Positions 1 through 20,960 of a stretch of DNA of 21,970 bases are shown in pieces; within the stretch, counting starts at the first letter, position 1; every line of letters starts with the position of its first letter. The notes under the pieces are model-generated. The model searched no databases. It saw only the letters and a list, made by a program, of their open reading frames with translations, and had not been told where the DNA came from. Source of the DNA: a plasmid; sequence record NZ_CP014059.2; one strand, written 5' to 3'. The position numbers and the translations under genes are program-made.

Positions 1-912
1 GCTCGCCGCGCCCATAGCCGCACCGATGGCAGCGCCCGCGCCGAAATTACCGATGCCGCCAGCGTTCCCCACGCCCGTACCGGAAATGACGCCCGCGACC
101 AGCGGCGGCACGCGATTGACCAGCATGAGCAACGCCACGCAGAAAACCAGCATCACGCCCAGCTCTTCAAAGTTCAGCGTGCCGGTGTTCATCCTGGCGT
201 AGAAGCTGGAAAGCAGGTCGTTCCCGATGCCGACCAGGAGCACCATCGTCATGATCTGCACGGCCACGCCCAGCACAGTCTTGTAGTAGTTGATCGCCAT
301 GTCGGACGTCCAACGGCTTCCACCGAAGCCGAGGAAGAAGATGCCGGCGTACATCAGCAGCCAGCCCGAGACGAGCAGCAACAGCATGTTTATGGCAACG
401 ACAGCCAGCAGGATCAGGATGCCGAGGCTCAAGGCCACGCCGATGAAGCTATCCACGGGAGACCAGATCGACGAGTTGCTGAATGCCTGCTTCAAGATCA
501 TGAAGCCGATATCCACGATGCCCGAGGGTGTCACCGATGCCACCCCGGACGCCTGCTCACCGATCCGGGCCAATGACTGGATGATCGAGTTGGCGAAGGC
601 CGGGCCGTTGCGCAGCAGCCAGAGGAAGAAGCCAAAGAACAGGATGAAGCGGATGAACTCGGCGAAGAACTCGCCAATGTCGGCCTTGCGCAGCGCCATG
701 AAGCCGAACGTGAAAACCAGCGAGATCGTGCCCAGCGTCCAGAACAGGAACATCGCGGCATTCATCACCACCGTCTGCCAGGACGTGGCCCGCGTGGCGA
801 ACTCCGTCACCACCTGGTCAAGCATCCCTTGATTGGTGAGCTGGGCCGATGCGGCGGTGGAGTAAAGCGCGAGCGTGACGCCGATCAGCGCCGCCTTGTG
901 CAGTGCTTTCAT
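1..912 (-). CDS. trbL: TrbL (VirB6-like mating-pair-formation protein), N-terminal 304 codons; the ORF runs off the left edge of the window
   Basis: Minus-strand ORF starts with ATG at 912-910, overlapping the trbK stop (ATGA). The product is hydrophobic and multi-TM, MKALHKAALIGVTLALYSTAASAQ..., in the trbJ-trbK-trbL order typical of IncP-1 Tra2. Codon phase reaches position 1 exactly (..GAAS). Confidence 0.85.
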   Translation of the reverse strand, partial: MKALHKAALIGVTLALYSTAASAQLTNQGMLDQVVTEFATRATSWQTVVMNAAMFLFWTLGTISLVFTFGFMALRKADIGEFFAEFIRFILFFGFFLWLLRNGPAFANSIIQSLARIGEQASGVASVTPSGIVDIGFMILKQAFSNSSIWSPVDSFIGVALSLGILILLAVVAINMLLLLVSGWLLMYAGIFFLGFGGSRWTSDMAINYYKTVLGVAVQIMTMVLLVGIGNDLLSSFYARMNTGTLNFEELGVMLVFCVALLMLVNRVPPLVAGVISGTGVGNAGGIGNFGAGAAIGAAMGAAS

Positions 913-1175
913 GGCTTCGCCTCCTGGTCTTTCGGGTCGGCCAGTTCGAGCCAGTTCATGGGCTTCTCGGTCGGCGCGATGCCGCCGGCGGCCGGCGACC
1001 GACGCGAGCACAGCCCGGCGAATTTCTCGCGCGTACCCCTGTCCTCGATCTTCTTGATCGCCTCGATCTGGCAATTGGTGTCATTGACCTCGGGCATGGG
1101 CGGAATGGCCGGCTTGTTGTCGCAGCCAGCCACCAGCACCACCACGAGGCCGGCAAGCAGCATCGTTTTCTTCAT
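909..1175 (-). CDS. trbK: TrbK-like entry-exclusion lipoprotein (88 aa)
   Basis: Small ORF between trbJ and trbL. It has a signal peptide with lipobox LVAGC. A GGAGG Shine-Dalgarno lies upstream. Position and size match IncP-1 TrbK. Confidence 0.7.
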   Translation of the reverse strand: MKKTMLLAGLVVVLVAGCDNKPAIPPMPEVNDTNCQIEAIKKIEDRGTREKFAGLCSRRSPAAGGIAPTEKPMNWLELADPKDQEAKP

Positions 1176-1190: not shown

Positions 1191-1976
1191 TCAGCGGGTC
1201 AGTTCGAGCCAGTTCTTCGGGCTCGCCGTGCGCTCGATCCTGGATTCCCTGGAAGTCGCGCCGGCGGCCTGCTGTTGCGCCTCAAGGTCGGCCTGCGCCT
1301 GCATCCTGGCGGTCGCGGCGTTCTGCTGCGCGATCAGCAGGCCGCGAATCTGCAAGAGCTGGTTCGCCTGGTTGGCGGCGAGCTGGTTGGCGAAGCCGAT
1401 GGCCTGCATCTGCCCGGTCGCACCCTGCGCGGCCGACTGGAGCCGTTCGAGCTGGCGAGCGTCGGCGGTAAGGTTGCGCTGCTGTTGCTCCAGACCCTTG
1501 AAAAGCGCGTCGTTCGCCTTCTTCTGGCTCTCGCTCGCCAGGCGGCGGTTCTCTTCCATCGCGGCGCGCTCTGCATCCGAGCAACCGGCGGCCGAGAAGC
1601 ACGGCGAGCCACGGTAATAGGCCACGTCCTGGAACTTGCCCAGGTAGCTGTCGAGACTGCCGAGCTGGTTCCGGTAGTAGTCCAGCGTGTTGACGGCATT
1701 CATCAGCCCGTTGATCGTGGACTGCGCCTGATCCCAGATGTAGGCCGCCGGGGCCATCGTGTTTTGCAGCATGTTCTCGTACTGCTGCAATTGGGTCTGG
1801 TACTGCTCGATCTGCTTGAGCGTCTGCGCCACCGACTCGATGGCCGTCATGACGTTCTGCACCAGGTTGCCGCCGTCGATGACGGGAATGCCGGCCTGCG
1901 CCGGGGTAATGATGATGCTGCCGGCCAGGGCAGCGGCGAGCGCGGTTTTAGCCGCTAAAAGGCGGACGTGTTTCAT
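1191..1976 (-). CDS. trbJ: TrbJ (VirB5-like minor pilus/Mpf protein, 261 aa)
   Basis: Signal peptide followed by a Q-rich coiled-coil region (QLQQYENMLQNT). Gene order is as in IncP-1. A GAGG Shine-Dalgarno lies upstream of the ATG at 1976. Confidence 0.85.
   Translation of the reverse strand: MKHVRLLAAKTALAAALAGSIIITPAQAGIPVIDGGNLVQNVMTAIESVAQTLKQIEQYQTQLQQYENMLQNTMAPAAYIWDQAQSTINGLMNAVNTLDYYRNQLGSLDSYLGKFQDVAYYRGSPCFSAAGCSDAERAAMEENRRLASESQKKANDALFKGLEQQQRNLTADARQLERLQSAAQGATGQMQAIGFANQLAANQANQLLQIRGLLIAQQNAATARMQAQADLEAQQQAAGATSRESRIERTASPKNWLELTR
1947..1959. promoter_or_regulatory. KorB operator (OB) consensus TTTAGCCGCTAAA, inside trbJ codons 6-10
   Basis: Exact match to the IncP-1 OB palindrome TTTAGC(G/C)GCTAAA. 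Confidence 0.8.
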
Positions 1977-2152
1977 GGTCGAGTACCTCGATGTGATGAG
2001 CGGCTAATCTGCCCCACGACCTACCGACAAGGCTGGTCATGGGGTTGGGCCATCACGAGACAGTTCGCCACGAAAAGACTGTCAAGGTACCCGCCCAGGA
2101 CGACACCGTCGCGTCCGGGCTTACGTTTTTGTTGAACATCGGTGTAAGCTAA

Positions 2153-2180
2153 CTAGCTGCTATATAGCTTCTAGCTGCTA
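2153..2180. promoter_or_regulatory. Two direct copies of CTAGCTGCTA (2153-2162 and 2171-2180) upstream of trbJ; putative operator
   Basis: The same 10-11-bp motif recurs at 9141-9172 and 10131-10141 in other promoter regions. Confidence 0.5.
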
Positions 2181-2218
2181 ATTCGGATGCTAATCGAACA
2201 TCCGAGAATTCGCAAGCG

Positions 2219-4048
2219 TCATCGCCCGCGCTTCTTGCCCTCCTGGCGTTTCGCCTTCTTGGCTTCCATCTGCGCCCGTAGCCGCGTCTCGCGCTGTTCC
2301 AGCTCGGACGGCGCGGGCCTGGCCGGCTGCTGAACTTTGGCCGGCGGCGGTGTCGGGGTGGCCTGGGTCGGCGCTTGTACCGGCCGCTGGGCTTCGCCCT
2401 CGATGTGCAGCCCGTCGAGCTGGCCCAACGTGCGCAGGCCGTGCCGGCGATGTGGCGGCGGCTCCTGGCCGACAGGGGGCACACCTGGCCGGCGCTTGGC
2501 CTGGGCCTTGGTGGCCTCGGCCTGCCGCCGGCTTTCCAGTGCCGGATCGGCGAAGGTGATGGGGAGCTGGGCATCGACGGCCGCCCGGATCACGGCGGCC
2601 TTGAACTCCACGCTGCCGCTGACAGTGATGCGCTCGCCGTAGCGTTCCATTGCCAGGCGCAGCGCCGCCGCCACGCCGGCGCGGTCGGCCTGGCTGGACA
2701 CGGCCAGGCGCTCGCCGTCATCGCGCACGGCCGAGCTGCCGGCGCGGTAGATGATCGTGCCCTTCTTCGTGATGCTGTCGATCACCGGGGCATGGCCGGG
2801 CTTCGCCTGGCCGTCGCCCTGGATGGTGTCGCCCTTGAGGCCCTGGGCCGCCTCGCGGGCGCGCAGCGCATCGAGCGCCTGGCCGTCGCCGGCCGTTGCC
2901 TGCTGCTTGAGCCAGTCGGCCCACGGCCGCCGGCGGTGCTCGTTGTAGATCGCCGCCCGCTCCTGGTCGTGGCGCTTGTGGATCGCCTCCAGGTCGGCCC
3001 GCAGAGCGGCGCTGGCCTGGGCATACAGCAGCTTCTTGGTCAGCCGGCCATCGGTCAGGTGCTTGATGGCCGCCCGCCGGGTGGCCGCCGCCTTCTTGGC
3101 GTGCTCGATGGCCCGATCCTTCCGGCGCTTCGCCTCGGCCAGCACGCCGGCCCTGGCGGCTGTGAGGGTCTGCTGTGCGCCCTTGTACCGGGCGTAAAGC
3201 TCGGTCGTATCCAGGCCGCCGCGCAGACGCATCGGCCGGCCCTTCTGGTAGTTGCGCCGTGCCGGCGCGGCCTGGCGCTCGGGCGACGCCTCGAACGTGC
3301 CAAGCCGCTTTTCCAGGGCGGGCTTGGACAGGTCGCGGGCCAAGGTGCTGGCCTTGATGATCGTGCCGTCGCCGGCCTCGATGACCAGGCCGTTACCGCG
3401 TGCGCGCAGCGCCAGGCCGTTGTCGCGCATGACCTGGTGCAGCTCGGCCCAGCTTGCCGCGTCCTTGATCTCGTCCAGGCACTCGCGCTTGATCCAGCCG
3501 ACCAGGCTTTCCACGCCGGCGTGCTGCTCCAGGTCGCCAGCCCTGGCGGCCGCGCCGCGCTGGCGTGGTTCGTGGTTGTCGCGTTCCAGGCCGTAGTCGC
3601 GTTCCAGGGTCGTGCAGAGGTCGGCCAGCGCCCGATGCGAGTAGTACGGCTCCTGCATCGTGCCCCTGGTCGGGTGAATCTTGTTGATGGCGATGTGGAT
3701 GTGCAGGTTGTCGGTGTCGTTATGCACGGCGCTGACGCGCTGATGCTCGCCCAGGCCCAGCCCGTCGCAGATGCGGGCCTCGATCTGCCGCAGGGTGTCG
3801 GCGCTCGGCTGCTCGCCGGCGCGAAAGCTGACGATCAGGTGATAGGTCTTGTCGCCCTTGGCCCGCGTGTTGGCCTGCTGGGTTGCCAGTACCTCGGTGA
3901 TTGCATCGCGCACGGTGTCGGCGGCGCAGTTCGTGACCTGCACCTGGCCCAGCCGGTGGTCTTTGCTCTGCGCGTCGGTGACGTAGCGCACCAGGCCGGC
4001 GAAGTCGGACTTGCCCAGCGAGCGCATGGGCACGTGCTTGGCGATCAC
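2219..4048 (-). CDS. traI: TraI relaxase, MOBP / IncP type (609 aa)
   Basis: N-terminus MIAKHVPMRSLGKSDFAGLVRYVTD is near-identical to RP4 TraI, with the catalytic Tyr at position 22. The His motif HNDTDNLHIHIAIN is present. The start overlaps the traJ stop. Confidence 0.93.
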   Translation of the reverse strand: MIAKHVPMRSLGKSDFAGLVRYVTDAQSKDHRLGQVQVTNCAADTVRDAITEVLATQQANTRAKGDKTYHLIVSFRAGEQPSADTLRQIEARICDGLGLGEHQRVSAVHNDTDNLHIHIAINKIHPTRGTMQEPYYSHRALADLCTTLERDYGLERDNHEPRQRGAAARAGDLEQHAGVESLVGWIKRECLDEIKDAASWAELHQVMRDNGLALRARGNGLVIEAGDGTIIKASTLARDLSKPALEKRLGTFEASPERQAAPARRNYQKGRPMRLRGGLDTTELYARYKGAQQTLTAARAGVLAEAKRRKDRAIEHAKKAAATRRAAIKHLTDGRLTKKLLYAQASAALRADLEAIHKRHDQERAAIYNEHRRRPWADWLKQQATAGDGQALDALRAREAAQGLKGDTIQGDGQAKPGHAPVIDSITKKGTIIYRAGSSAVRDDGERLAVSSQADRAGVAAALRLAMERYGERITVSGSVEFKAAVIRAAVDAQLPITFADPALESRRQAEATKAQAKRRPGVPPVGQEPPPHRRHGLRTLGQLDGLHIEGEAQRPVQAPTQATPTPPPAKVQQPARPAPSELEQRETRLRAQMEAKKAKRQEGKKRGR

Positions 4049-4422
4049 GATTGCCCGCCTCGCGGCCGCACCACGCTTTCCGCGATGGTGCTGATCTTGT
4101 CCTGGGTCGCCTCGATCCGGGCCAGCAGCGCCCGGATGGTGTCATCGCCGAAGCGGGCCGTGCGCGGGTCGTCGGTCAGCCAGAGCTTGAGCAAGCCGCC
4201 CAGCCGCCCGAGGTCGCCATTCACGCGCACCAGGTCGCGCACGTTCTCGAAGTCGGTCACGCCTTTGACCTGGTAGCCCTGACCGACCGCCAGCAGGTAG
4301 GCGGACGTGCTCATGCCGGCGGCCTGGGCGTTGGCCTCGATGGCGGCCCGTTCGTCCGGCAGGCAATAGACCTTGATGGGCGTGCTGCCCTTCCTCGTTA
4401 CCTTGTTCTCGTTGGCCTCCAT
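4045..4422 (-). CDS. traJ: TraJ oriT-binding relaxosome protein (125 aa)
   Basis: The segment IKVYCLPDERAAIE...GMSTSAYLLAVGQGY...INGDLGRLGGLLKLWLTDDPRTARFGD is almost identical to RP4 TraJ. Confidence 0.92.
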   Translation of the reverse strand: MEANENKVTRKGSTPIKVYCLPDERAAIEANAQAAGMSTSAYLLAVGQGYQVKGVTDFENVRDLVRVNGDLGRLGGLLKLWLTDDPRTARFGDDTIRALLARIEATQDKISTIAESVVRPRGGQS

Positions 4423-4508
4423 CTTGGCGTCCTCTGTCGTTGCCGGCGGCCGCCGGCTGGCCCCGCAGGGCAGGATGCCCCGTTGAGCGCCGCAGGCGCG
4501 AATAAGGG

Positions 4509-4568
4509 GAAGTGAAGAGGATCACCATGCTTGCATGGTGGGCCTACTTCACACATCCTGCCCTCTAT
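4509..4568 (+). other. oriT core: imperfect inverted repeat 4511-4552 and nic region CTTCACacATCCTG|CCC, with the nick predicted between 4560 and 4561 on the + strand
   Basis: The RP4 nic region is CTTCACCTATCCTG|CCCGG. The neighbouring AATAAGGGgAaGTGAAGA and GGTGGGCCTACTTCAC are also conserved. It lies between divergent traJ and traK, as in IncP-1. Confidence 0.9.
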
Positions 4569-4777
4569 TCAGCGTTGCATTCAATAAGGAAACTATACAC
4601 GCGCCATTGTGGATTTGCATGGTATCTAGCAAGGAAACCTAGCGCCTATGGATGCAACACGGCAAAATGCAGGGAAATCCGCTTGCTCGCAGGACTTAAC
4701 ACGCTGTTTCAGCGCACATTCCATGTGCTTTCCACTAGCTTTACACACATGAACCCGCGCGCATTACATAAACAGGA

Positions 4778-5206
4778 ATGAAGCCGATGGGAACCCGATA
4801 CACCGATGAACTTGCCGCCTGGGCCGATCAGAAGGCCGAGAAGAAGCGCCGCCAGGACGCGGCGGCAGTAGCGTTTCTGGCGGTGCGCGGGGATGTGGTC
4901 GAGGCAATGGAAGCCGGCTACGCGCTGACGACGATCTACGATCACATGCACGAAACCGGCCGGGTGAAAACCAGCTATGAGACGTTCCGCCGGCACGTCC
5001 AGCGGTTCATCAAGGCAGCGCCGGCCGACACCGCGCCGCCGACACCGAAGGCCGCCACCAGGTCGGCCAGCAACTCGCCGACCACCGTTCCAGCCGTCAC
5101 GCCAAAGCCGGCCGTATCAGCTCCGGCCAGCCCTGCCAGCGAGCAAGCCGGGAAGATTCCCAGCTTCAATTTCAACCCGACGCCGAACAAAGAGGACTTG
5201 CTGTAA
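4778..5206 (+). CDS. traK: TraK oriT-binding/bending protein (142 aa)
   Basis: YTDELAAWADQKAEKKRRQDAAAVAFLAVRGDV...SYETFRRHVQRFIKA...FNFNPTPNKEDLL matches RP4 TraK. Confidence 0.9.
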   Translation: MKPMGTRYTDELAAWADQKAEKKRRQDAAAVAFLAVRGDVVEAMEAGYALTTIYDHMHETGRVKTSYETFRRHVQRFIKAAPADTAPPTPKAATRSASNSPTTVPAVTPKPAVSAPASPASEQAGKIPSFNFNPTPNKEDLL

Positions 5207-5240
5207 GCCGCCCCTGATGGGGGGATGAACACCAAGGGAA

Positions 5241-5414
5241 GACAGTCGGCCGGCCCCTCAAGTGTCAATAACCCCATGACGTGAAATCGCCCCCCCCCCT
5301 GCGCCGCCCACCGGCCAACAGATCAGGACGGCCAAACCTGGCCGCTAGGGGCAGGCCCGCGCCCCTCAAATGTCAATATCCGGGCCTCCCCCGAGTTCGT
5401 GAAATCGCCCCCCC
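5241..5414. repeat. Two imperfect direct-repeat units of about 60 bp, each made of a TrfA-type iteron (5253-5267 GCCCCTCAAGTGTCA; 5361-5375 GCCCCTCAAATGTCA) plus CGTGAAATCG and a C tract (C10 at 5290-5299; C7 at 5407-5413)
   Basis: The iterons are the reverse complement of the IncP-1 oriV iteron consensus TGACA(C/G)TTGAGGGGC. No trfA gene is present in the window. Confidence 0.75.
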
Positions 5415-5425
5415 TGGTGGGCCGG

Positions 5426-6346
5426 TCACTCGCCGCCTGGCTTCTTCCTGGTCGCAGGCTTCGCCTCGGCCGCCGGCGGCGTGATACGGGCCAGCAGCGC
5501 GGCAGATTGCTCCTTGAGCGTGTCGAGTTGCCCCGCCATGCGGGCAGCTTCCTCACGAGCCTGCGCGGTGGCCTTCGCGGCCTGATCGCGCTCGGCCTGC
5601 GCTGCCGTCAAGCGTTCTGCCATACGCTGCGCCTCGACCGCTGCGGCCTTCCGCTGCTCCTGGTGCGCTTCGCGCTCGGCATCGGCCTTGGCGCGGACGG
5701 TCGCCAGTTCCTCGCGCACCTGGTCAAGTTGAGCGGCGACAGCCTGGCCGGCTTTCTGCTGGTCGGCCAGCGCCCGGCGTGCTTGGTCTGCGTCCTCGTG
5801 GGCGCGGTCAAGTTCGGTGCGCAGCTCGCCGGCCCTGGCCTCGGCCGTGGCGGCCCGCTCACTGGCCGCTGCCAGCTCTTGGCGAACGGCGGTGAGTTCC
5901 TGGGCCAACTTTTCGGCGGCGGCCTTCTCAGCGGTCAGCTCGGCCGTGGTCGCCTCCAGCTCGCCGGCCTGGCGCTCGAAAGCCTCGGCCAGCTCCTGCC
6001 GCATCGCGTCCAGCTCGGCCCGCTCTGTTTCCCATGCGGCCTGTGCGCTGCGCAGGGATTCGTTCGCCAGCTCCTGGGCCTGCTGCCAGATCGTCGCCAC
6101 GGCGGCGCTGCTGGCCTGCTGCACGACCTCCGGCACCGCCACGGCCACCGGGGCGGCCTGGGCAGTCTGCGCCCTGCGCCATTCCTTCATCACGGCGCTG
6201 GCTGCGTTCATATCTACGCGGGCGGCCCGGCGCACCGCATCGACCGTGGGCATCGTCTCGCGGCCCGACTGCTCGAAAAGATCAGTGGCGGCGGCAATGA
6301 TGCGCTCGCGCACGTCGGCGGGGATTTGGGGGGCTTGCGGTGTCAT
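5426..6346 (-). CDS. kfrA: KfrA-like alanine-rich coiled-coil DNA-binding protein (about 306 aa from the ATG at 6346)
   Basis: Long Ala/Glu/Gln/Arg-rich coiled coil. The N-terminal wHTH-like segment is VDAVRRAARVDMNAASAVMKEWRR. It is convergent with traK, as in IncP-1. An autoregulatory palindrome lies upstream. Confidence 0.8.
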   Translation of the reverse strand: MTPQAPQIPADVRERIIAAATDLFEQSGRETMPTVDAVRRAARVDMNAASAVMKEWRRAQTAQAAPVAVAVPEVVQQASSAAVATIWQQAQELANESLRSAQAAWETERAELDAMRQELAEAFERQAGELEATTAELTAEKAAAEKLAQELTAVRQELAAASERAATAEARAGELRTELDRAHEDADQARRALADQQKAGQAVAAQLDQVREELATVRAKADAEREAHQEQRKAAAVEAQRMAERLTAAQAERDQAAKATAQAREEAARMAGQLDTLKEQSAALLARITPPAAEAKPATRKKPGGE

Positions 6347-6368
6347 GGCATCGGCTCCGGTGGATAAG

Positions 6369-6399
6369 ATAAGAAGAATAATATTATTATTCTTCTTAT
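6369..6399. promoter_or_regulatory. Perfect 31-bp palindrome ATAAGAAGAATAATA-T-TATTATTCTTCTTAT in a nearly 100% A+T island; putative KfrA operator / kfrA promoter
   Basis: The 15-1-15 palindrome lies 23-53 bp upstream of the kfrA ATG. GATAA repeats and a GGTGGATAA DnaA-box-like motif (6359-6367) flank it. Confidence 0.7.
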
Positions 6400-6624
6400 T
6401 ATGCAAGCCATTATTTTCCGCATGGCCTGGATCAGCCCGGCCGGGAGCGCGTCGGGGGTCGAAATTCGGGCCTGGGCGGGCCGTGGCGGCGTTTTCCAGG
6501 GTTGGCGGCACTATCCCCTACCCTCGCCCGGTTTCGGGCGTCCTGGGCGTTTCTACGCGGCCGATCTCCGGCGCAAACGAAAAAAGCCAGACCACGGCCG
6601 GCCTGGCTTCCCCTTGGCGTCAGA

Positions 6625-6637
6625 TTTAGCGGCTAAA
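6625..6637. promoter_or_regulatory. KorB operator (OB) TTTAGCGGCTAAA
   Basis: Exact OB consensus. It lies about 280 bp upstream of the kfrA start and immediately 3' of the small gene 6640..6948. Confidence 0.8.
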
Positions 6638-6639
6638 AA

Positions 6640-6948
6640 TTAGGTCGCGGCCTGTAGGCGCTTCACGGCTGAAACGAAGTCCAGGCGCAGCAGGTGCATG
6701 GCAAGGTCGATGGCACCACCGCCGCCCTTCTCTGCGCGGGTGTCGTACCACTTCGGCCCGGTCGCCAGCAGCTCCACGCCACCGCCACCCAGCGCGACAT
6801 TCACCCGCACCGTGGCCTTGTCCTTGATCGGTTTGAAATCCGGGTCGTACTTCCAGTAGAGGCCCAAGAGATCGAGCGTGGCCGTTACCTGCATCGCGTG
6901 CAGGCGTGCCAACAACTCCGGCGGGAAAGCTCGCCGGGCGCGGCTCAT
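6640..6948 (-). CDS. Small protein (102 aa from the ATG at 6948) with a degenerate, cysteine-less CHC2 primase zinc-finger-like segment
   Basis: High GC3 real-gene codon usage. KWYDTRAEKGGGGAIDLAMHLLRLDFVSAV resembles the zf-CHC2 tail CFGCGagGDvIDFvm but lacks the cysteines. It is adjacent to the PrimPol rep gene. Confidence 0.45.
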   Translation of the reverse strand: MSRARRAFPPELLARLHAMQVTATLDLLGLYWKYDPDFKPIKDKATVRVNVALGGGGVELLATGPKWYDTRAEKGGGGAIDLAMHLLRLDFVSAVKRLQAAT

Positions 6949-6949
6949 G

Positions 6950-7280
6950 ACAACACCCCGGCGAGCTGGACGAGGGAGCCGCCCTTCGGGCGGCGGGCTA
7001 CTCCGGGCCTTCGGCCCCTCCGCGCCGTTCCGGCGCTGCGCGGCCCGTGGATAACTTGCAAGCAAGTTACCCACCGCCCTTGCCGGCTACTCGCGTTATA
7101 TAAACGCAGGGGGCTACTCCGGCCTACGGCCGAGGCGGACAAGCCGCTAGGCTTCGCCATTAGTAATACGGACGGACTTGTCTCAAGCATTGTGGCCGCC
7201 CTCGTCACTTCCGGCGATGCTGGCCAGGTCGGCCGCCTGGGCCTGTAATACGGATGGACTTGTCTCACTCGCCGGCGCGG
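6950..7280. other. Candidate vegetative origin (oriV) / rep-proximal repeat region
   Basis: It contains a UUCG-loop hairpin at 6978-6994. It has a 21-22-bp direct repeat GGGCTACTCCGG(G)CCT(T/A)CGGCC at 6995-7016 and 7111-7131. A DnaA-box-like cGTGGATAA sits at 7046-7054, next to the palindrome TAACTTGCAAGCAAGTTA at 7052-7069. An A+T palindrome GCGTTATATAAACGC is at 7093-7107. A 23-bp direct repeat GTAATACGGA(C/T)GGACTTGTCTCA at 7163-7185 and 7245-7267 overlaps the 3' end of rep. Confidence 0.4.
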
Positions 7281-8565
7281 CTGGCTTGCCAGCTCGATAC
7301 CAGCTCGCCCGGCTCATACCGAGGGCTTCCCAAGGCTTCTGCCGGCTCAAGGAGCGGCTTTCGTAGGTTTGCCGATCTACCGCCCCAGCAGCCCGCCGGC
7401 GGGCCGTGTGGCGCTCTCTGTCGCGCTCCTTCGCCATATCCGAGCTGATGAGCGTGCGGAGCTTGCGCTGTTCCTCGTCGGTGATCTGGAACAGGCTGAT
7501 GATGGTGTCGTTCTTGGGCGTGTAGAGCGGGGAAAGCTGCTTGCCGCCGAACTCCACTTTCTCGCCGGCCTCGTGCGCCTTTGCCTTGGCGTACAACGTC
7601 ATCAGCTCCTTGGAGCGATACGACCAGGCCGGATCAAGCTCGCCGGCCAGCGCGGCCGCCTCGTGGTACATCTGCCCGCTGTGCGTAGCACCAGACAGCA
7701 GCAGGAAGTTGAGACGCCAGAAAAGATGCTGCATCCGCTCGCCTTCCCTGACGCCACCGCGCAGCTCGGCCAGCTTGCGCAAGTCCTCCAGGCGATCCCA
7801 TGCGAGCTGCCGACCGGAGAAGCCGCGCAGGTTGTCGGCCTTGCCGCCTGGCAATAGCTTGAGCTGCCGGCGTTCGGCACGGTCGCGGCGTTGCTGCTCG
7901 ATGTCCCAGCGGGCTACTGGCAGCAGCATTTCAGCCAGGTACTCGAAACCGTAGCGGACGGGCTGGCCGTCCTGGCCGTGCTCGACATGCACCACGCGGC
8001 ACACATCGCCGCTCTTGGTATTCACGGTGCTGACCAGGCGCAGCACGCGGCTTGCGTCCTTGGCCTGGGGGTCGGCGCCGAGGCCGGCCAGGCGATCGAC
8101 AAGATACCGCTGGCAGGCGTTCCAGCGCGGCAGCGCCTGGCGCGGCAAGGTGCCGTCCAGCAGCCACTTGGCTTGTATGCCGCGGCCGCTATAGACCAGC
8201 AGCGAGGGCGTGGGGATGCCTTCCTGGGCGCAGTGGTACAGCACGGTGGCCGCCAGTTGCTCCGGCGTCCTGCCGGTGGCCCACGGCTGCCGGTAGGTGT
8301 CCAGGTCGGCGAACAGCAGCCCGACACGCGCCAGATTCACCACGCGCCGGTTAGGGCGCATGAACTCGGCCTGCGTCAGCCAGGTGTCGCGGGTCTGATC
8401 GACCATGCCCAAGATCGTGGGCATGTCTGTGAGCCTGTATGAGTCTTGCCGCTTGTCCTTCCCTACCGCGACCAGGAGCGAGAAAAAGCCCGTCCTGGCC
8501 GTGTCATGGTAGGTGCCGGCCTCGTCGGCCGGCTCGAACAAGGCAAGTTGTGCCTGTCCTGCCAT
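7183..8565 (-). CDS. Replication initiator with archaeo-eukaryotic primase-polymerase (PrimPol) motifs (about 460 aa from the ATG at 8565); not TrfA
   Basis: PrimPol motif I is VGLLFADLD, motif II is YSGRGIQAKWLL and motif III is VLRLVSTVNTKSGDVCRVV. N-terminal QLALF resembles the QL[SD]LF beta-clamp motif. An AAGGGG Shine-Dalgarno lies upstream. The promoter region carries a KorA operator. Confidence 0.6.
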   Translation of the reverse strand: MAGQAQLALFEPADEAGTYHDTARTGFFSLLVAVGKDKRQDSYRLTDMPTILGMVDQTRDTWLTQAEFMRPNRRVVNLARVGLLFADLDTYRQPWATGRTPEQLAATVLYHCAQEGIPTPSLLVYSGRGIQAKWLLDGTLPRQALPRWNACQRYLVDRLAGLGADPQAKDASRVLRLVSTVNTKSGDVCRVVHVEHGQDGQPVRYGFEYLAEMLLPVARWDIEQQRRDRAERRQLKLLPGGKADNLRGFSGRQLAWDRLEDLRKLAELRGGVREGERMQHLFWRLNFLLLSGATHSGQMYHEAAALAGELDPAWSYRSKELMTLYAKAKAHEAGEKVEFGGKQLSPLYTPKNDTIISLFQITDEEQRKLRTLISSDMAKERDRERHTARRRAAGAVDRQTYESRSLSRQKPWEALGMSRASWYRAGKPAAPASETSPSVLQAQAADLASIAGSDEGGHNA

Positions 8566-8630
8566 AACCCCTTCCCGCACGGAATCCGCGCGTGACTCTT
8601 GCCATTGAAGGGGTCAGGCCGTAGAATGAG

Positions 8631-8642
8631 GTTTAGCTAAAC
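8631..8642. promoter_or_regulatory. KorA operator (OA) GTTTAGCTAAAC in the rep promoter region, flanked by 10-bp inverted repeats GAATGAGGTT (8624-8633) / AACCTCATTC (8668-8677)
   Basis: Exact 12-bp IncP-1 OA consensus, 66-77 bp upstream of the rep ATG. No korA gene is present in the window. Confidence 0.8.
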
Positions 8643-8730
8643 AGTCGTGGGTGCGGTTGAACCCATAACCTCATTCATCGGCTGTCGTGTCTATCAGCTC
8701 GCCAAAGCTGGTAGGCCCGGAACCCCCGCC

Positions 8731-8766
8731 AAAGCCCCGTCGCCAAACGGGGCTTTTGCATTTTTA
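8731..8766. terminator. Rho-independent terminator hairpin AAAGCCCCG-tcgccaaa-CGGGGCTTT followed by TGCATTTTTA; bidirectional
   Basis: Perfect 9-bp stem and a T tract. It lies at the 3' end of the minus-strand gene 8764..9078 and separates that gene from the rep promoter. Confidence 0.6.
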
Positions 8767-9078
8767 CGGCTCGATGCCGGTGCCACCCAGCAACTCGCCA
8801 CCTTTGCGGGTCAGCGTCTTGGGCTTCCACCCGGCCACGTCCGCCTCGAAGCGGTAGATGCCGTGCTGAATCAGCAACGACGCCGCCGCGTCAATCGTGC
8901 GGAAGTAGCGGGGGCCGCCCCGATACTGCCCAAGGATGCGATTTTCTCCGCCGATCCGAAGCGCCAGAACCAGGCCCTTCTCTGCAACGGTGACAGTCGC
9001 ACCCTGTACGCCGCCCACCAAAACGACCTCCTTAAATGCGGTCGGATTGATGACAGCCTTTGAATCAAACGTAATCAT
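8764..9078 (-). CDS. Hypothetical protein (104 aa), function unknown
   Basis: Real-gene codon bias. Its own promoter region (9079-9161) has a CATAAT -10 and overlaps the CTAGCTGCTA motifs. A terminator lies downstream. The opposite-strand ORF 8647..9063 has poor codon usage. Confidence 0.5.
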   Translation of the reverse strand: MITFDSKAVINPTAFKEVVLVGGVQGATVTVAEKGLVLALRIGGENRILGQYRGGPRYFRTIDAAASLLIQHGIYRFEADVAGWKPKTLTRKGGELLGGTGIEP

Positions 9079-9140
9079 GCCCCACCTTCGCAGCAGTGTC
9101 CAGCATTAACGAAAAATGCAGGTGTCGGTTTTCGATTATG

Positions 9141-9172
9141 TAGCTGCTACCTAGCAGCAAACTAGCTGCTAG
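9141..9172. promoter_or_regulatory. Three alternating-orientation copies of the TAGCTGCTA motif (TAGCTGCTAcCTAGCAGCaaaCTAGCTGCTAG); putative operator
   Basis: It overlaps the parG stop and the promoter of gene 8764..9078. The same motif is at 2153-2180 and 10131-10141. Confidence 0.5.
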
Positions 9173-9491
9173 ATTGTTCGTAATGGTCAAGGGCCTTTTC
9201 CAGTATCTCGACCAGCAGCACACCTTCACGCTGCGCCAGGGCGCGGATGCGGGCATCCCATTCCGGCGTCACCCGCGTGGCGAACTGCACCGTGCGGTTC
9301 GTCTTGCGGGCGCTCCGGCCGTCGATCTTCTTGGCCGCCGGCGCTTGCGGTGGTGGGTTGGCGGCGGCCGGCCTGGCTACCGGTGCAACCTCCGGCGCGG
9401 TCAGGTTCGTGCTGGCCTCGTCCAGCGTCGGCGGTGCGCCCAGCTCGTCGCGCCGGCCTTTCAATTTCTTGAGCTTGGATACGTCAGCCAT
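9162..9491 (-). CDS. parG: ParG-like ribbon-helix-helix centromere-binding protein (109 aa) with a flexible basic N-terminal tail
   Basis: C-terminal RHH is RTVQFATRVTPEWDARIRALAQREGVLLVEILEKALDHYE. It overlaps the upstream parA by 8 nt. Confidence 0.7.
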   Translation of the reverse strand: MADVSKLKKLKGRRDELGAPPTLDEASTNLTAPEVAPVARPAAANPPPQAPAAKKIDGRSARKTNRTVQFATRVTPEWDARIRALAQREGVLLVEILEKALDHYEQSSS

Positions 9492-10116
9492 TTGTCACCC
9501 GGTCGATGAGCGATTGAATGAGTGTGTCGGCCCGCTCGTTCAGGCCCGCAAAGCGGGTTTCTGTGATGCTGTGGCCGGTGTTTTGCGCCTGGCGGTAGGC
9601 CGGCCGGTCGCGCAAGCTCCCATCCAGGACGGTGTAGCCGGCCTGCTGTAAATAGACCCGCGCCGCGACCTCTTCCGCCGGCGTGCCGATGCGGTTGAGG
9701 GCGAACGCCAGGCGGTCGTTCGGGACACCGGCCTTCGTCAGCGCGTGGAACTCGCGCACGGCCGGAATGAGGTCATCCCTCGATGCGCCGGACGGCTGCA
9801 CGATCAAATCGGCAGCGCGGGCTATGTCGAGCGTCGCCGAGCTGGTGCGGGCCGGCCCGTCGATGATGAGAAGGTCGTAACCCTTGGCCGCTTCCAGGGC
9901 CTGCGCGGCCGTGGCGAACGCCTCGACGGACACCACGGGTTCAATGCCCTGGGAAAGCCGCAGGCGGTGCCAATCGACAGCAGTTCCCTGCTGTGTATCC
10001 AGGTCTGCTACCTTCACGCGCAAGCCGCCGGCGGCCGCTTCGCGTGCAAGGGCACGCGCCAGGGTGGATTTCCCTACGCCGCCCTTCTGTGAGACGAATG
10101 CGACAATCGCCGCCAT
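9484..10116 (-). CDS. parA: Small ParA/ParF-type partition ATPase (210 aa)
   Basis: Deviant Walker A VSQKGGVGKST. The size and the parA-RHH operon structure match type Ib partition systems. Confidence 0.85.
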   Translation of the reverse strand: MAAIVAFVSQKGGVGKSTLARALAREAAAGGLRVKVADLDTQQGTAVDWHRLRLSQGIEPVVSVEAFATAAQALEAAKGYDLLIIDGPARTSSATLDIARAADLIVQPSGASRDDLIPAVREFHALTKAGVPNDRLAFALNRIGTPAEEVAARVYLQQAGYTVLDGSLRDRPAYRQAQNTGHSITETRFAGLNERADTLIQSLIDRVTNG

Positions 10117-10124
10117 AATTTAGC

Positions 10125-10192
10125 CCCTATCTAGCTGCTAGGTAGCAACGATTATAAGATAGAAGCTAGATACAAGATAGTAGCTAGATAGA
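10125..10192. repeat. Centromere/operator-like array upstream of parA: CTAGCTGCTAG, then repeated AGATAG and CTAGATA units
   Basis: Clustered short direct repeats lie between the parA start (10116) and the KorB operator. A TATAAT -10 (10151-10156, minus strand) is embedded in them. Confidence 0.5.
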
Positions 10193-10193
10193 T

Positions 10194-10206
10194 TTTAGCC
10201 GCTAAA
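10194..10206. promoter_or_regulatory. KorB operator (OB) TTTAGCCGCTAAA
   Basis: Exact consensus. It overlaps the resolvase stop codon and lies 78 bp upstream of the parA start. Confidence 0.8.
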
Positions 10207-11107
10207 GTTTGCGCCGCCGCGCCCGCTCGGCGTCTGCCAGGTCGCCGGGCCACGTCGCCAGCTCGTCATCGGTGAGGGCCGCCAGGATTTGCGGCAGGTT
10301 TTGGGTTCGGTACGGGGGCATCGGCAGATCGGCGACTGGGCCTTCATCGTCCAGAAAAGCCGGCTCGGGCAGCTCGGCCGCGCCCTGCTCCACGTCGGCC
10401 GCCGCGCCGGCGTCGGCCTCGGTCAATGCGTCCTCCACGAAAGCGCCATGCCTGGCCGCCTCGGCCCGGCTCATGTCACGGCTGGCCCAAATCCGTTTGA
10501 CCTGGGCCACGCTGCACCCGGCCAGCTTGGCAGTCTCCGCGATGCTCTGGCCGATGCTGCGCAACGCGATCACCTGGGCGCGCAGCTTCGGATCGGCCCG
10601 CCGGCCCTTGTAGCGGCCGTCCCGCTTCGCCAGCTCGATGCCCTGGCGCTGCCGCTCGCGCCTGTCCTCGTAGTCGTCGCGGGCCATCTGTAGGGCCAGC
10701 TTCAAAAGCATGTCCTGGACGGATTCCAGGACGATCTTGGCGACGCCCTGGGCCTCGGCCGCCAGGTCGGATAGATCGACCACGCCAGGGACGGCCAGGC
10801 GCGCACCCTTGGCCCGGATCGAGGCCACCAGGCGCTCGGCCTCGGGCAAGGGTAGGCGGCTGATGCGGTCGATCTTCTCGGCAATGACCACCTCGCCCGG
10901 TTGCAGGTCGGCCACCATGCGCAGCAGCTCGGGCCGGTCAGCGCGTGCGCCGCTGGCTTTCTCGCGGTAGATGCCGGCGACGTAGTACCCGGCGGCCTTC
11001 GCGGCCGTGATGATCCCTTCCTGGCGTTCAAGGTCTTGCGCGTCGGTGCTGACGCGCAGATAGACCCGCGCCACCATCGGCGCGGCTGCTGGCTTCGTCC
11101 TGCTCAT
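10202..11107 (-). CDS. Serine recombinase / resolvase (301 aa from ATG 11107, AAGGAG Shine-Dalgarno) with a long acidic C-terminal extension
   Basis: N-terminal catalytic motif YLRVSTDAQDLERQ. The HTH is GQSIAETAKLAGCSVAQVKRIW. It is divergent from the TA module across the res region, like the RK2 par/mrs layout. Confidence 0.85.
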   Translation of the reverse strand: MSRTKPAAAPMVARVYLRVSTDAQDLERQEGIITAAKAAGYYVAGIYREKASGARADRPELLRMVADLQPGEVVIAEKIDRISRLPLPEAERLVASIRAKGARLAVPGVVDLSDLAAEAQGVAKIVLESVQDMLLKLALQMARDDYEDRRERQRQGIELAKRDGRYKGRRADPKLRAQVIALRSIGQSIAETAKLAGCSVAQVKRIWASRDMSRAEAARHGAFVEDALTEADAGAAADVEQGAAELPEPAFLDDEGPVADLPMPPYRTQNLPQILAALTDDELATWPGDLADAERARRRKL

Positions 11108-11125
11108 TCTGGCTCCTTTGGGCAT

Positions 11126-20663: not shown

Positions 20664-20897
20664 CTACGCGGTGAGTGACTGCCGCACCGCGTCCAGGGCC
20701 TGGCGGAAGTCGTCCCGCGTAGCCTGGCCCGTCTCGGCCTGGTAGTACAGCACCATGAACATATTGGCGACGGCTTCCGCCATCGGCGAGAGCTGCCGCG
20801 CCGCCTCTTGGTCGATCCAGTCCAGGGCCGCGAGCTGTGCGGCCGCATGATGGACTGCCTGGGTTGCGATTGCATTGGTAGGATTCAAAGTTGCCAT
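20664..20897 (-). CDS. Hypothetical helical protein (77 aa)
   Basis: GAGGTGA Shine-Dalgarno upstream of the ATG. A terminator lies downstream. Confidence 0.5.
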   Translation of the reverse strand: MATLNPTNAIATQAVHHAAAQLAALDWIDQEAARQLSPMAEAVANMFMVLYYQAETGQATRDDFRQALDAVRQSLTA

Positions 20898-20960
20898 GAT
20901 TCACCTCTGTGGTAGGTGGGTTGTGGAAGTGTCGGCCGGCCCCACGCCGGCCGGCGCGCT

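Follow-up and report, generated by a model that had tools for sequence, protein, structure and literature searches.

Small resistance plasmids of the pMATVIM-7 (p07-406)/pPE52IMP/pSMC1 family are predicted to be mobilizable, and a family member alone yielded no transconjugants without a helper (Gomez-Martinez et al. 2022, PMC9501424). That paper records 'parB not found' and 'no iterons', and KorA and KorB sites are not among the features it mentions. A second group of relevance, GIsul2, the 'IncP island', and PIMEs, consists of integrative elements that have been proposed or shown to depend on an IncP-1 helper (PMC5704250; bioRxiv 10.64898/2026.01.12.698999). IncP helpers induce and mobilize related integrative elements (bioRxiv 10.64898/2026.01.12.698999); here too, KorA, KorB, and TrfA sites are not mentioned in either report.

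A complete replicon with IncP-1-type transfer genes

The DNA analysed here (21,970 nt; "the window") is a whole circle whose ends join inside trbL. When the last 400 and first 400 bases are joined, the resulting 800 bp match trbL of plasmid p3-T1 without gaps at 100% identity; the window thus represents a complete plasmid in circularly permuted form, and no genes are hidden elsewhere on the molecule, including korA, korB, or trfA, whose discovery outside the window would have overturned the original prediction. The closest relative is p3-T1, with a backbone 100% identical to the window. Backbone DNA is about 96% identical to that of the pMATVIM-7 family, with repA, parA, parC, kfrA, traJ, traI, traK, trbJ, trbK, trbL, and a MOBP11 relaxase in common, and the plasmid is a member of this published family (pMATVIM-7/p07-406/pPE52IMP). 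Unlike the clinical plasmids, however, the window and p3-T1 belong to a non-clinical branch (Acidovorax, Xanthomonas, Hydrogenophaga) with different cargo. The transfer genes and the borders of the backbone are as follows.

21221..21970, minus strand: 5' part of trbL; the tblastn alignment with R751 TrbL is unbroken across the junction
1..912, minus strand: 3' part of trbL, joined to 21221..21970 across the record junction; 553 aa in total
909..1175, minus strand: trbK, entry-exclusion lipoprotein homologue; 62% identity to R751 TrbK over 42 aa
1191..1976, minus strand: trbJ (VirB5-like; Pfam T4SS); 77% aa identity to R751
2219..4048, minus strand: traI, MOBP relaxase; 609 aa versus 747 aa in R751
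4045..4422, minus strand: traJ; 60% aa identity to R751
4459..4563, minus strand: oriT core, also traJ-II RNA (Rfam); oriT region 78% identical to R751
4778..5206, plus strand: traK; 46% aa identity to R751
10202..11125, minus strand: resolvase gene, beyond which the accessory region starts
20891..20961, plus strand: PtaRNA1 antitoxin RNA, in a trbJ-trbK-trbL-orf-ptaRNA1 block common to the GIsul2-type element

By tblastn, TrbL is 52-56% identical to R751 TrbL, and TraI is 73% identical over the N-terminal 525 aa. The nic motif ATCCTG|C lies at 4555-4561, and the adjoining inverted repeat shows compensatory changes relative to R751. TrbK retains an intact lipobox (LVAGC) and, in the alignment, a conserved mature N-terminus (CDNKPA..PMPEVND). 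These homologies confirm that oriT, traI, traJ, and traK are present, which gives the plasmid an IncP-type relaxosome of its own, and that the mating-pair genes are limited to trbJ, trbK, and trbL, with no other Trb genes and no coupling protein. When R751 proteins were compared with the circularised window by tblastn, KorA, KorB, TrfA, and TraG gave nothing better than an E value of about 0.2, and the sole IncC match was to the P-loop of ParA encoded by the plasmid itself (E 0.002). Pfam scans of the backbone and accessory ORFs likewise found no ParB/KorB, KorA, or TrfA domains. Thus, the reported lack of korA, korB, incC, trfA, and traG is borne out.

This gene content indicates a plasmid that must obtain its coupling protein and mating-pair apparatus from outside. 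That the helper must be IncP-1, as first claimed, holds in part. In its favour are the gene content, the lack of solo transconjugants in the family, the sharing of sites with chromosomal elements of an IncP-1-dependent type, and the co-residence in Acidovorax sp. T1 of p3-T1 and p2-T1, a full IncP-1beta plasmid, both of which were assembled as complete replicons. Against it, an IncP-1 partner is absent in two of the three hosts checked. Since these other hosts carry the plasmid without such a partner, the plasmid replicates autonomously, and it has its own set of replication and partition proteins: an IncP-6/IncU-type Rep, ParA, a ribbon-helix-helix partner, and ParC.

Helper-type sites and the small-RNA promoter

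The IncP-1 cis-acting sites proved to be real and orphan: the KorB operator (OB) TTTAGCSGCTAAA occurs exactly three times, the KorA operator (OA) GTTTAGCTAAAC once, and the TrfA-type iteron TGACAYTTGAGGGGC twice. These exact sites are non-random. In 100 shuffles, there was no case of at least three OB matches, no exact OA match, and no case of two iteron matches at up to one mismatch; R751 itself has 10 iteron-type sites at up to two mismatches.

1947..1959, no strand: OB1, exact; nt 18-30 of trbJ, coding for LLAAK of the signal peptide
5253..5267, minus strand: iteron A, TGACACTTGAGGGGC; exact in an X. cucurbitae plasmid, with flanks 66-71% identical
5324..5337, no strand: decayed fourth OB between the iterons; intact in p07-406
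5361..5375, minus strand: iteron B, TGACATTTGAGGGGC; its sole difference from the orthologue is at a position also variable among R751 iterons
5426..6346, minus strand: kfrA (Pfam KfrA_N); C-terminal part 59% identical to R751 KfrA
6625..6637, no strand: OB2, exact; between the orf102 stop codon and the terminator at 6584-6604, ~235 bp upstream of the kfrA promoter
8631..8642, no strand: OA, exact; 3 bp downstream of a -10 hexamer
10194..10206, no strand: OB3, exact; distal member of the parA operator array, overlapping the resolvase stop codon

In each case, the site is better conserved than its surroundings. The arms of OB1 are kept at 12 of 12 positions relative to R751, with 60-bp flanks only 49-57% identical. 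OB2 is exact and in the same place in relatives L002, L018, and L024 (Rep 78% identical) with flanks 41-64% identical, and all 13 positions are kept in L024. The arms of OB3 are invariant in L002, L005, L008, and L018-L020, with A, C, or G as the centre base; compared with L005, 12 of 12 arm positions are kept, and the 60-bp flanks are 58-61% identical. OA is exact in L002, L018, and L024 (12/12 in L024, 60-bp flanks 53-70% identical), and the motif is present with one mismatch in L005 and L013, where it is kept despite a 3-bp indel. The iterons match their orthologues at 15/15 and 14/15 positions, with 60-bp flanks 66-81% identical. Because the sites are exact while the flanking DNA of relatives is only 40-75% identical, this comparison indicates that the orphan KorA, KorB, and TrfA sites are under purifying selection.

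The placement of the sites departs from what was first proposed. A KorB operator had been assigned to the trb promoter, but OB1 lies inside the trbJ coding sequence. Its counterpart in R751 trbJ is at nt 15-27, and others occur in trbJ of p2-T1 and of the GIsul2-type element; given the same within-gene placement in R751, OB1 was inherited with the gene and does not serve as a promoter operator. The putative kfrA promoter is overlapped by a perfect 15-bp inverted repeat (6369-6399). The KorA operator, previously placed on the rep promoter, is found instead at the start of a small-RNA promoter that points away from rep.

6640..6948, minus strand: orf102, conserved small gene downstream of rep
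7163..7185 and 7245..7267: 23-bp direct repeats which, with an inverted repeat at 7042..7079, form a candidate own oriV
7183..8565, minus strand: rep, IncP-6/IncU-type; 78% to IncP-6-type plasmids, 69% to IncU RepB
8599..8627, plus strand: promoter TTGCCA-17-TAGAAT, the best sigma-70 match of the backbone
8634..8765, plus strand: structured small RNA of about 130 nt with three hairpins, the last being a terminator (8731..8756)

OA falls at about +1 to +12 of this promoter, which is kept with diverged spacers in L002, L005, L013, L024, and L010. The small RNA has an invariant loop, CGCCAA, in two hairpins, an MFE of -59.2 kcal/mol (z -6.3), and an architecture kept in six diverged homologues, and its covariation score is 0.657, versus no more than 0.15 for slid controls. 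It could be a counter-transcript that controls rep, a role suggested solely by its position. The possibility that Rep is a TrfA was rejected, as was the possibility that the two iterons are the plasmid's origin; Rep is of the IncP-6/IncU type.

Taken together, these results have led to the explanation that we consider probable, namely, that the plasmid is an IncP-1 hijacker wired into the control circuit of its helper. In RK2, a KorB-CTP clamp travels along the DNA for as much as about 1.5 kb, and KorA bound at OA locks it, so that RNA polymerase is occluded (PMC11790492). In the plasmid, 1.55 kb separates OA from OB3, and 2.0 kb separates it from OB2. With an IncP-1 helper in the same cell, KorB would load at the three OB sites and KorA would bind OA; the most likely output would be helper-dependent silencing of the small RNA at promoter 8599-8627. 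Should the small RNA regulate rep negatively, the effect of KorA would be more Rep, not repression, and copy number would also rise when transfer is possible. In addition, par, kfrA, and trbJKL might be modulated by helper KorA/KorB, and TrfA might bind the two iterons, resulting in titration or handcuffing of the helper origin or serving as a sensing input. Finally, TrbK, together with TrbJ and TrbL, might provide the plasmid's own exclusion function or a remodelled helper apparatus; comparable remodelling or exclusion has been shown for SGI1 with IncC plasmids. For trbJKL of GIsul2 and the IncP island, it has been proposed (PMC5704250; bioRxiv 10.64898/2026.01.12.698999).

Three E. coli chromosomal trbJ-trbL elements also carry helper-type sites, and all lack ParA, its partner, KorA, KorB, and TrfA. 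In the GIsul2-type element, trbJ contains an exact OB, and there is an inverted iteron pair; the MB19 element has two exact OA and two exact OB, an OB-type site with A at its centre in trbJ, and repeats resembling iterons, spaced at 22 bp in AT-rich DNA; and the Z0117EC0098 element has three exact OB. Because the pattern recurs in IncP-1-helper-dependent chromosomal elements, the conserved sites are a testable candidate for how hijackers sense an IncP-1 helper.

Some observations count against reading the plasmid as a hijacker: the decayed OB, the trbJ OB of L013 (one site, with a mismatch), the OB sites retained in L005 despite the absence of any IncP-type transfer genes, and the two partnerless hosts.

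The partition module and other explanations

It had been supposed that control would come from the helper in trans. The plasmid indeed encodes no helper regulators, but it does have its own ParA and a ribbon-helix-helix partner, whose putative sites resemble the KorB operator.

2153..2181, no strand: two own-type palindromes, TAGCTGCTA, in the traI-trbJ spacer; putative ParA-partner sites
8764..9078, minus strand: parC (NCBIfam ParC, E 6e-36)
9140..9172, no strand: three own-type sites, GTAGCTGCTAC, CTAGCAGCAAA, and CTAGCTGCTAG, in an 11-bp register; centromere-like array
9162..9491, minus strand: ParA partner gene, 109 aa; predicted C-terminal ribbon-helix-helix (ParG-like)
9484..10116, minus strand: parA, small type Ib ATPase (210 aa)
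10131..10187, no strand: parA promoter operator array, one perfect and two degenerate own-type sites; -10 hexamer TATAAT at 10151-10156, minus strand

Homologous loci have own-type sites at the position equivalent to the 9140-9172 array. Given this module, it could be postulated that the sites form the plasmid's own regulon: the ParA partner, predicted to be a ribbon-helix-helix protein, would bind a common core, TAGCnGCTA, whatever the flanks, and OB would be a variant of its operator or centromere sites, while OA would be the operator of some plasmid protein, the iterons relics, and helper binding incidental. The own-type site TCTAGCnGCTAGA and OB have 11 of 13 positions in common, differing only at +5 and -5; the window has 8 core palindromes versus 0.14 expected; and 47 of 59 other loci, carried by replicons whose Rep types are unrelated, also have core sites flanking the parA and partner genes. 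Furthermore, the centre base varies freely in the lineage: it is A or T in 6 of 23 OB-type sites, whereas the 20 distinct exact sites obtained by scanning two IncP-1beta plasmids (R751, 9; p2-T1, 11) all have G or C, a difference suggesting that the binder of OB-type sites in the lineage may not be KorB. An own-type site (L012) or a hybrid site (L024) replaces OB3 in relatives, and this, together with the existence of hybrids, fits a single plasmid-encoded binder. However, OB-type flanks (TT-TAGC) are limited to the plasmid's lineage and R751, with none among 127 core sites in the 59 other partner-encoding loci. Plasmids that have OB-type sites and plasmids that lack them show an identical predicted DNA-reading strand in the partner, RTVQFATRV, and sister plasmids L010 and L012, whose Rep and Par proteins are the same, lack OA, OB, and iterons. 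Because OA and OB differ in half-site spacing, one protein could not bind both. The GIsul2-type, MB19, and Z0117EC0098 elements carry OB, OA, and iterons without ParA or its partner, and own-type sites were not found in them. Lastly, the exact TrfA iterons are left unexplained, and an own regulon is considered unlikely.

Less likely again is that the plasmid is mainly an IncP-1 antagonist, in which TrbK blocks entry of IncP-1 plasmids, TrfA is titrated or handcuffed by the iterons and KorA/KorB titrated by the operators, and the helper is thereby destabilised or displaced, an effect that SGI1 has on IncC plasmids. The intact lipobox and conserved mature N-terminus of TrbK and the exact iterons would suit such a role, and RK2 iterons, when cloned, act in trans to inhibit RK2 replication. 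One related integrative element lowered the amplification of its helper, but no cotransfer penalty was reported for the element studied (bioRxiv 10.64898/2026.01.12.698999). Moreover, each copy of the plasmid has only two iterons and three or four operators, and a strong form of the antagonism raised in the original prediction is unsupported because p3-T1 and p2-T1 co-reside as complete replicons in one strain, a stable co-residence that also speaks against strong incompatibility.

The least probable explanation, that a recombinant acquired IncP-1 segments (trbJKL, traIJK-oriT, kfrA) with neutral operators and iterons that have not yet decayed, accommodates OB1 at homologous trbJ codons in R751, the decayed OB between the iterons, and the L013 mismatch, but it is at odds with exact sites in flanks only 40-75% identical, with substitutions limited to the OB centre base and a known variable iteron position, with OA, OB2, and OB3 in a Rep/Par module that is not IncP-1-derived and in arrangements not found in R751, and with the persistence of sites in AT-rich chromosomal elements.

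Comparison with known systems

To the description of the pMATVIM-7 family, the present analysis adds a ParA partner with its site family, as well as IncP-1 operators, iterons, and a small RNA. With IncP-1 (R751, RP4, p2-T1), the plasmid shares identical OB, OA, and iteron sequences, a 78% identical oriT, and homologues of TraI, TraJ, TraK, TrbJ, TrbK, TrbL, and the C-terminal part of KfrA. Nevertheless, it is not an IncP-1 member: it has no trfA/oriV cluster, korA-incC-korB, traG, trbB-I, or KorC operator, and its OA is downstream of the -10 hexamer, whereas in IncP-1 OA is over it.

The gene order parA, small partner gene, parC, rep is that of IncP-6 (Rms149-type) and IncU (RA3-type) plasmids, but the plasmid's Rep forms a separate clade; no OB, OA, or iterons were found in IncP-6-like and pXAS25 relatives. 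TP228 ParF/ParG is a type Ib partition system with a ribbon-helix-helix centromere-binding protein. Like it, the plasmid has a small ParA, a partner whose N-terminal tail is flexible and whose C-terminal part is a ribbon-helix-helix, and repeated short palindromes upstream of parA and beside the partner gene. The partner has no sequence match to ParG in Pfam or PDB, and, unlike TP228, the plasmid has an extra parC gene and a site core identical to the KorB operator core.

GIsul2, the IncP island, and PIMEs share with the plasmid the trbJ-trbK-trbL block and the lack of a coupling protein. In the GIsul2-type element, trbJKL is followed by the same small orf and ptaRNA1 toxin-antitoxin pair, and the IncP island and PIMEs have IncP-type traJ, traI, and oriT. 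However, these elements integrate via a tyrosine recombinase and have IncQ-like RepA/RepC or no rep gene, whereas the plasmid is autonomous with its own partition system.

The logic proposed for the plasmid is like that of SGI1 with IncA/C plasmids, in which the hijacker has binding sites for the master regulator of its helper, replicates in the helper's presence, interferes with the helper, and encodes a few substitute mating-pair subunits, including an exclusion partner. The helper signal differs: for SGI1 it is an activator (AcaCD), whereas for the plasmid it would be a pair of repressors, KorA and KorB.

Plasmid identity and IncP-1 gene content

When the last and first 400 bases of the window are joined, the resulting 800 bp are 100% identical to trbL of p3-T1, the nearest relative, from Acidovorax sp. 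T1. The ends therefore meet inside trbL and the window is the whole circle; consequently, the reservation attached to the original prediction, that the missing IncP-1 partners might lie elsewhere on the molecule, falls away. Backbone identity is 100% to p3-T1, whose extra 30 kb consist of transposons and cargo only, with no IncP-1 genes. It is 99.8% to Xanthomonas perforans pLH3.4 and about 96% at the DNA level to pMATVIM-7 (p07-406), pPE52IMP, pMRVIM0713, pD5170990 and pSMC1 (accessions of the ~96% relatives: NC_009739, CP102481, CP033834, KP975076 and KX169264). With pMATVIM-7 and pPE52IMP it shares the RepA clade and collinear repA, parA, parC, kfrA, traJIK and trbJKL. Relaxase, TraI_middle and LPD7 domains are present, and the relatives are typed MOBP. 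In 2022 the family was described as a group of mobilizable MOBP11 plasmids; its parB and iterons were reported as 'not found', with no iterons near repA, the plasmid's own origin could not be found, and KorA and KorB go unmentioned (PMC9501424). Membership in the pAX22, pNOR-2000, pMOS94 and pDCPR1 groups was dropped, as the papers assign these to other lineages (RepA_C or pLD209-type). The 38.7-kb pLH3.4 record (NZ_CP018473) has each backbone gene twice in unchanged order, which suggests a ~19-kb plasmid present as a head-to-tail dimer or doubled by an assembly artefact.

Features of the window
1947-1959: OB1, KorB-type operator, nt 18-30 of trbJ
2153-2181: own-type sites (putative sites of the ParA partner), TAGCTGCTA, in the traI-trbJ spacer
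5253-5267 and 5361-5375 (-): TrfA iterons, between traK and kfrA
5324-5337: decayed KorB operator between the iterons
6625-6637: OB2, KorB-type operator flanked by the orf102 stop codon and an intrinsic terminator, ~235 bp upstream of the kfrA promoter
7042-7079: 18-bp inverted repeat; with the next entry it straddles the rep 3' end
7163-7185 and 7245-7267: 23-bp direct repeats, GTAATACGGAYGGACTTGTCTCA
8599-8627 (+): best sigma-70 promoter match in the backbone, TTGCCA-17-TAGAAT
8599-8765 (+): region of a predicted structured RNA
8631-8642: OA, KorA-type operator
9140-9172: own-type sites, 11-bp-register array by the partner gene
9162-9491 (-): partner gene
10131-10187: own-type sites in the parA promoter
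10194-10206: OB3, KorB-type operator, distal element of the operator array in the parA promoter
11300-19300: cargo
20891-20961 (+): PtaRNA1 antitoxin RNA (Rfam, 84.7 bits)

The plasmid is a chimera of an IncP-6/IncU-like module (resolvase, parA, partner gene, parC, rep and orf102) and IncP-1beta-like parts (kfrA; oriT with traJ, traI and traK; trbJ, trbK and trbL). Its Rep is 78% identical to an IncP-6-type Rep and 69% identical to IncU RepB; a TrfA-like Rep was thus ruled out. The inverted repeat and direct repeats at the rep 3' end are a candidate own origin. The cargo encodes an MBL-fold hydrolase, two AraC-type regulators, carboxymuconolactone decarboxylase, cytochrome P460, a LysR regulator and a TniA-like transposase remnant, and is 99.9% identical to segments on large Cupriavidus, Citrobacter, Enterobacter and E. 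coli plasmids.

To establish gene content, R751 proteins were searched by tblastn against the circularised window, and the backbone and cargo ORFs were scanned with Pfam. By tblastn, KorA, KorB, TrfA and TraG have no match, and the sole match to IncC is the P-loop of the plasmid's ParA; by Pfam, ParB/KorB, KorA and TrfA domains are absent from the backbone and cargo ORFs. These results bear out the original prediction of IncP-1 sites without korA, korB or incC and of iterons without trfA. The proposed transfer inventory also holds against R751: traG and trbB-I are absent from the window, and Tra1/Tra2 are represented by traI, traJ, traK, trbJ, trbK and trbL only. Identities to R751 by tblastn are 77% for TrbJ, 62% for TrbK, 52-56% for TrbL, 73% for TraI over the N-terminal 525 residues, 60% for TraJ, 46% for TraK and 59% for the C-terminal part of KfrA. 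At oriT the identity is 78%, the nic motif is retained, and an inverted repeat shows compensatory changes. A KorC operator was not found in the window. Downstream of trbL, PtaRNA1 adjoins a small ORF; together they form a type I toxin-antitoxin pair associated with trbJKL.

Operators, iterons and a small RNA

Three exact copies of the 13-bp KorB palindrome TTTAGC(G/C)GCTAAA and one of the 12-bp KorA palindrome GTTTAGCTAAAC lie where they had first been noticed, with none expected by chance. The TrfA iteron core consensus TGACAnTTGAGGGGC has two exact copies, and R751 oriV carries sequences identical to them. However, the spacing of the copies is 108 bp and the DNA around them is GC-rich, unlike the ~22-bp cluster with DnaA boxes and AT-rich DNA of a functional oriV. 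Because the spacer that bears them has no match in IncP-1 plasmids at blastn sensitivity, it was ruled out as a copied piece of oriV. OB1 arrived together with trbJ; the operator occupies nt 15-27 of that gene in R751, in the complete IncP-1beta plasmid p2-T1 and in a GIsul2-type element. A perfect 15-bp inverted repeat overlaps the kfrA promoter downstream of OB2. The OA of R751 contains the -10 hexamer TAAACT, whereas in the window OA begins 3 bp downstream of the -10 hexamer TAGAAT and does not overlap it as at korAp and trfAp; start-site occlusion by OA is nonetheless plausible here. Neither inspection nor a scan found a convincing sigma-70 promoter for rep on the minus strand or for trbJ in the traI-trbJ spacer; transcription of rep may come by read-through from the par operon.

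The sites were set against their orthologous positions in five relatives at different distances from the window: X. cucurbitae (L002), X. fragariae (L005), an E. coli contig (L013), a Hydrogenophaga MAG (L018) and an Alcaligenaceae contig (L024, with a Rep 78% identical).

Conservation of the sites against their surroundings
OA: 12/12 identical, 60-bp flanks 53-70%, versus L024
OB2: 13/13 identical, 60-bp flanks 41-64%, versus L024
OB3 arms: 12/12 identical, 60-bp flanks 58-61%, versus L005
OB1 arms: 12/12 identical, 60-bp flanks 49-57%, versus R751
Iterons: 15/15 and 14/15 identical, spacer 78% overall, versus L002

The OA motif is kept in L005 and L013 despite a 3-bp deletion that shifts it relative to the promoter, OB2 stands directly 3' of the orf102 stop codon in each relative, and OB3 varies at the centre base alone. 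OB1 is embedded in trbJ signal-peptide codons that are otherwise variable, and the lone iteron difference falls at a position also variable among R751 iterons. X. fragariae pFap29-2 (L005) keeps three OB sites without IncP-type transfer genes. It should be noted that an ancestral KorB operator between the iterons is intact in p07-406 (L008, 23018-23030), half-decayed in X. cucurbitae and decayed in the window, so constraint differs from site to site.

The promoter beside OA faces away from rep and toward a strong terminator. Promoter, OA and terminator are conserved in six diverged plasmids, while the transcript body varies. The predicted 132-nt RNA has a fold z of -6.3, and its middle and terminator hairpins share an identical invariant loop, CGCCAA. 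The middle-hairpin stem has changes on both sides in 4 of 7 pairs, with a covariation score, from a hand-registered alignment of this hairpin, of 0.657 versus at most 0.15 for slid controls; on an automatic alignment of the small RNA, RNAalifold recovered the terminator only, and no covariation. The structured RNA (~130 nt), encoded in the rep-parC interval, has no Rfam family match. Judged from its position only, it is likely to be a counter-transcript for rep control in this Rep lineage.

A ParA partner with a predicted KorB-like site

ParA domains are detected at parA and iterated sites lie at the locus, which makes it a candidate type Ib ParA / ribbon-helix-helix partition system. The end of parA is overlapped by the gene for a 109-aa protein, here called the partner. 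In its 220 homologues a variable linker joins a conserved N-terminal peptide to a C-terminal strand-helix-helix. Sequence searches of Pfam, NCBIfam and the PDB gave no match. In an AlphaFold model the C-terminal strand-helix-helix reaches pLDDT 76-87, and the best Foldseek matches, although weak (E 0.6-5), are all ribbon-helix-helix proteins (CopG, Arc, PutA, ORF56 and MatP); together, model and matches suggest a ribbon-helix-helix fold.

The core palindrome TAGCnGCTA occurs eight times in the window versus 0.14 expected; three of these are the OB sites and five are own-type. Among 59 other partner-encoding loci (814 kb, on replicons with unrelated Rep types), 47 contain the core, in 127 sites with the consensus ATCTAGCnGCTAGAT, located upstream of parA and at the partner-gene end; in L005 the own-type clusters lie at 4241-4328 and 5331-5361. 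Thus, the plasmid very probably has its own global regulator, and since the predicted site of that regulator is KorB-like, the label "orphan" for the sites has to be qualified. Its own-type site and OB differ at positions +5 and -5 and nowhere else, the 9-bp core being identical. The KorB operator thus resembles a ribbon-helix-helix partition site family, and unrelated folds could possibly share operators. A metagenome contig (L011, 3922-8700) carries a TrfA-encoding plasmid with a TrfA iteron in which a ParA partner of the same kind replaces IncC/KorB; in nature, TrfA replicons therefore swap these two partition and regulator types.

These observations raise the alternative that the sites belong to the plasmid's own regulon. 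OB3 is replaced by an own-type or hybrid site in P. oryzihabitans (L012) and L024. Furthermore, 6 of 23 lineage sites of OB type are centred on A or T, as against G or C in all 20 distinct exact OB sites on two scanned IncP-1beta plasmids; given this variation, the binder in this lineage may be a protein other than KorB. On the other side, the OB-type flanks (TT-TAGC) occur in 0 of the 127 sites at other partner-encoding loci and are present only in this lineage and R751. P. syringae (L010) and P. oryzihabitans have the same Rep, ParA, partner and ParC, yet lack OA, OB and iterons; in P. syringae the small-RNA promoter is kept with a non-palindromic sequence at the OA position. The partner protein can account for neither OA nor the iterons.

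The same kinds of sites occur on three E. coli chromosomal trbJ-trbL elements from which ParA, the partner, own-type sites, KorA, KorB and TrfA are absent. The GIsul2-type element (L083, from NZ_CP160121; L083 positions 14176-15045), with the window's order trbJ-trbK-trbL-orf-ptaRNA1, has an inverted iteron pair upstream of trbJ and an exact OB within it. In the MB19 element (L085, from NZ_CP073981; L085 positions 12300-12930), AT-rich DNA upstream of traJ-trbJ contains, densely clustered, two exact OA sites, two tandem exact OB sites and, beside an AT-rich stretch, three iteron-like repeats at 22-bp spacing, without trfA; its trbJ holds an A-centred OB-type site. The cluster upstream of traJ-trbJ resembles a TrfA-dependent origin plus control region on an integrative element. 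The third, Z0117EC0098, adjoining guaA, has three exact OB sites. On these comparisons of sequence, and given that p3-T1 shares its strain with p2-T1, we favour wiring to an IncP-1 helper over the own-regulon alternative.

Proposed helper sensing and known systems

In Acidovorax sp. T1, p3-T1 is co-resident with p2-T1, whose KorA is identical to that of R751, and this argues against strong incompatibility or exclusion. Such natural co-residence also lends support to possible mobilization or induction of the plasmid by an IncP-1 helper. An IncP-1 partner is absent from two of the three hosts checked; thus, the plasmid persists alone.

How a helper might be read is suggested by RK2, in which KorB-CTP clamps load at OB, slide up to ~1.5 kb and are locked by OA-bound KorA, occluding RNA polymerase (PMC11790492). 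In the window, OA covers the small-RNA promoter start and lies 1,552 bp from OB3 and 1,994 bp from OB2. Helper KorB clamps could be loaded at OB2 or OB3 and then locked by KorA at OA. Given this arrangement and the RK2 mechanism, the most likely output would be silencing of the small RNA by a co-resident IncP-1 plasmid. If the small RNA inhibits rep, then Rep and copy number would rise when the helper is present, and such a rise would match the helper-induced replication reported for IncP-dependent integrative elements, for which the sensing mechanism was stated to be unknown (bioRxiv 10.64898/2026.01.12.698999). Helper amplification was reduced in the same study (bioRxiv 10.64898/2026.01.12.698999), and TrfA bound at the iterons could account for this.

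Taken together, these steps lead to a broader model, which as a whole we consider unlikely. In this model, KorB/KorA operators and TrfA iterons would be a common hallmark through which hijackers of IncP-1, plasmids as well as integrative elements, detect their helper. Here, the KorB-KorA lock would silence a counter-transcript and confine the rise in Rep and copy number to conditions in which transfer is possible. The plasmid's ribbon-helix-helix regulator could in turn bind the helper's 11-12 OB sites, which would make the cross-talk run both ways, through two unrelated DNA-binding folds.

The plasmid family, its mobilizable nature and the trbJKL-bearing elements as IncP pirates are already published; no mention of KorA or KorB was found in the literature examined on these elements. 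The shared site set on genetically unrelated hijackers provides a concrete helper-sensing hypothesis that is cheap to test and could also explain why helper amplification was reported to fall. If true, KorB-KorA sliding-clamp silencing would extend from control within a plasmid to control between elements. The pMATVIM-7 family disseminates VIM, IMP and KPC carbapenemase genes in Pseudomonas, Serratia and Enterobacter, and relatives of the plasmid occur in plant pathogens.

Among known systems, IncP-1 plasmids have TrfA with an oriV iteron cluster, korA-incC-korB and complete Tra1/Tra2 (traG, trbB-L), whereas the window has neither of the first two and only part of the third. It is like the GIsul2, IncP island and PIME (IncP-dependent integrative element) hijackers in carrying trbJ-trbK-trbL without the remaining mating-pair genes or a coupling protein, a block proposed, by analogy with SGI1, to remodel the IncP apparatus and exclusion (PMC5704250). 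However, those elements have an integrase and integrate into the chromosome, whereas the window is a closed circle with Rep and Par, and its only recombination genes are the resolvase and the TniA remnant.
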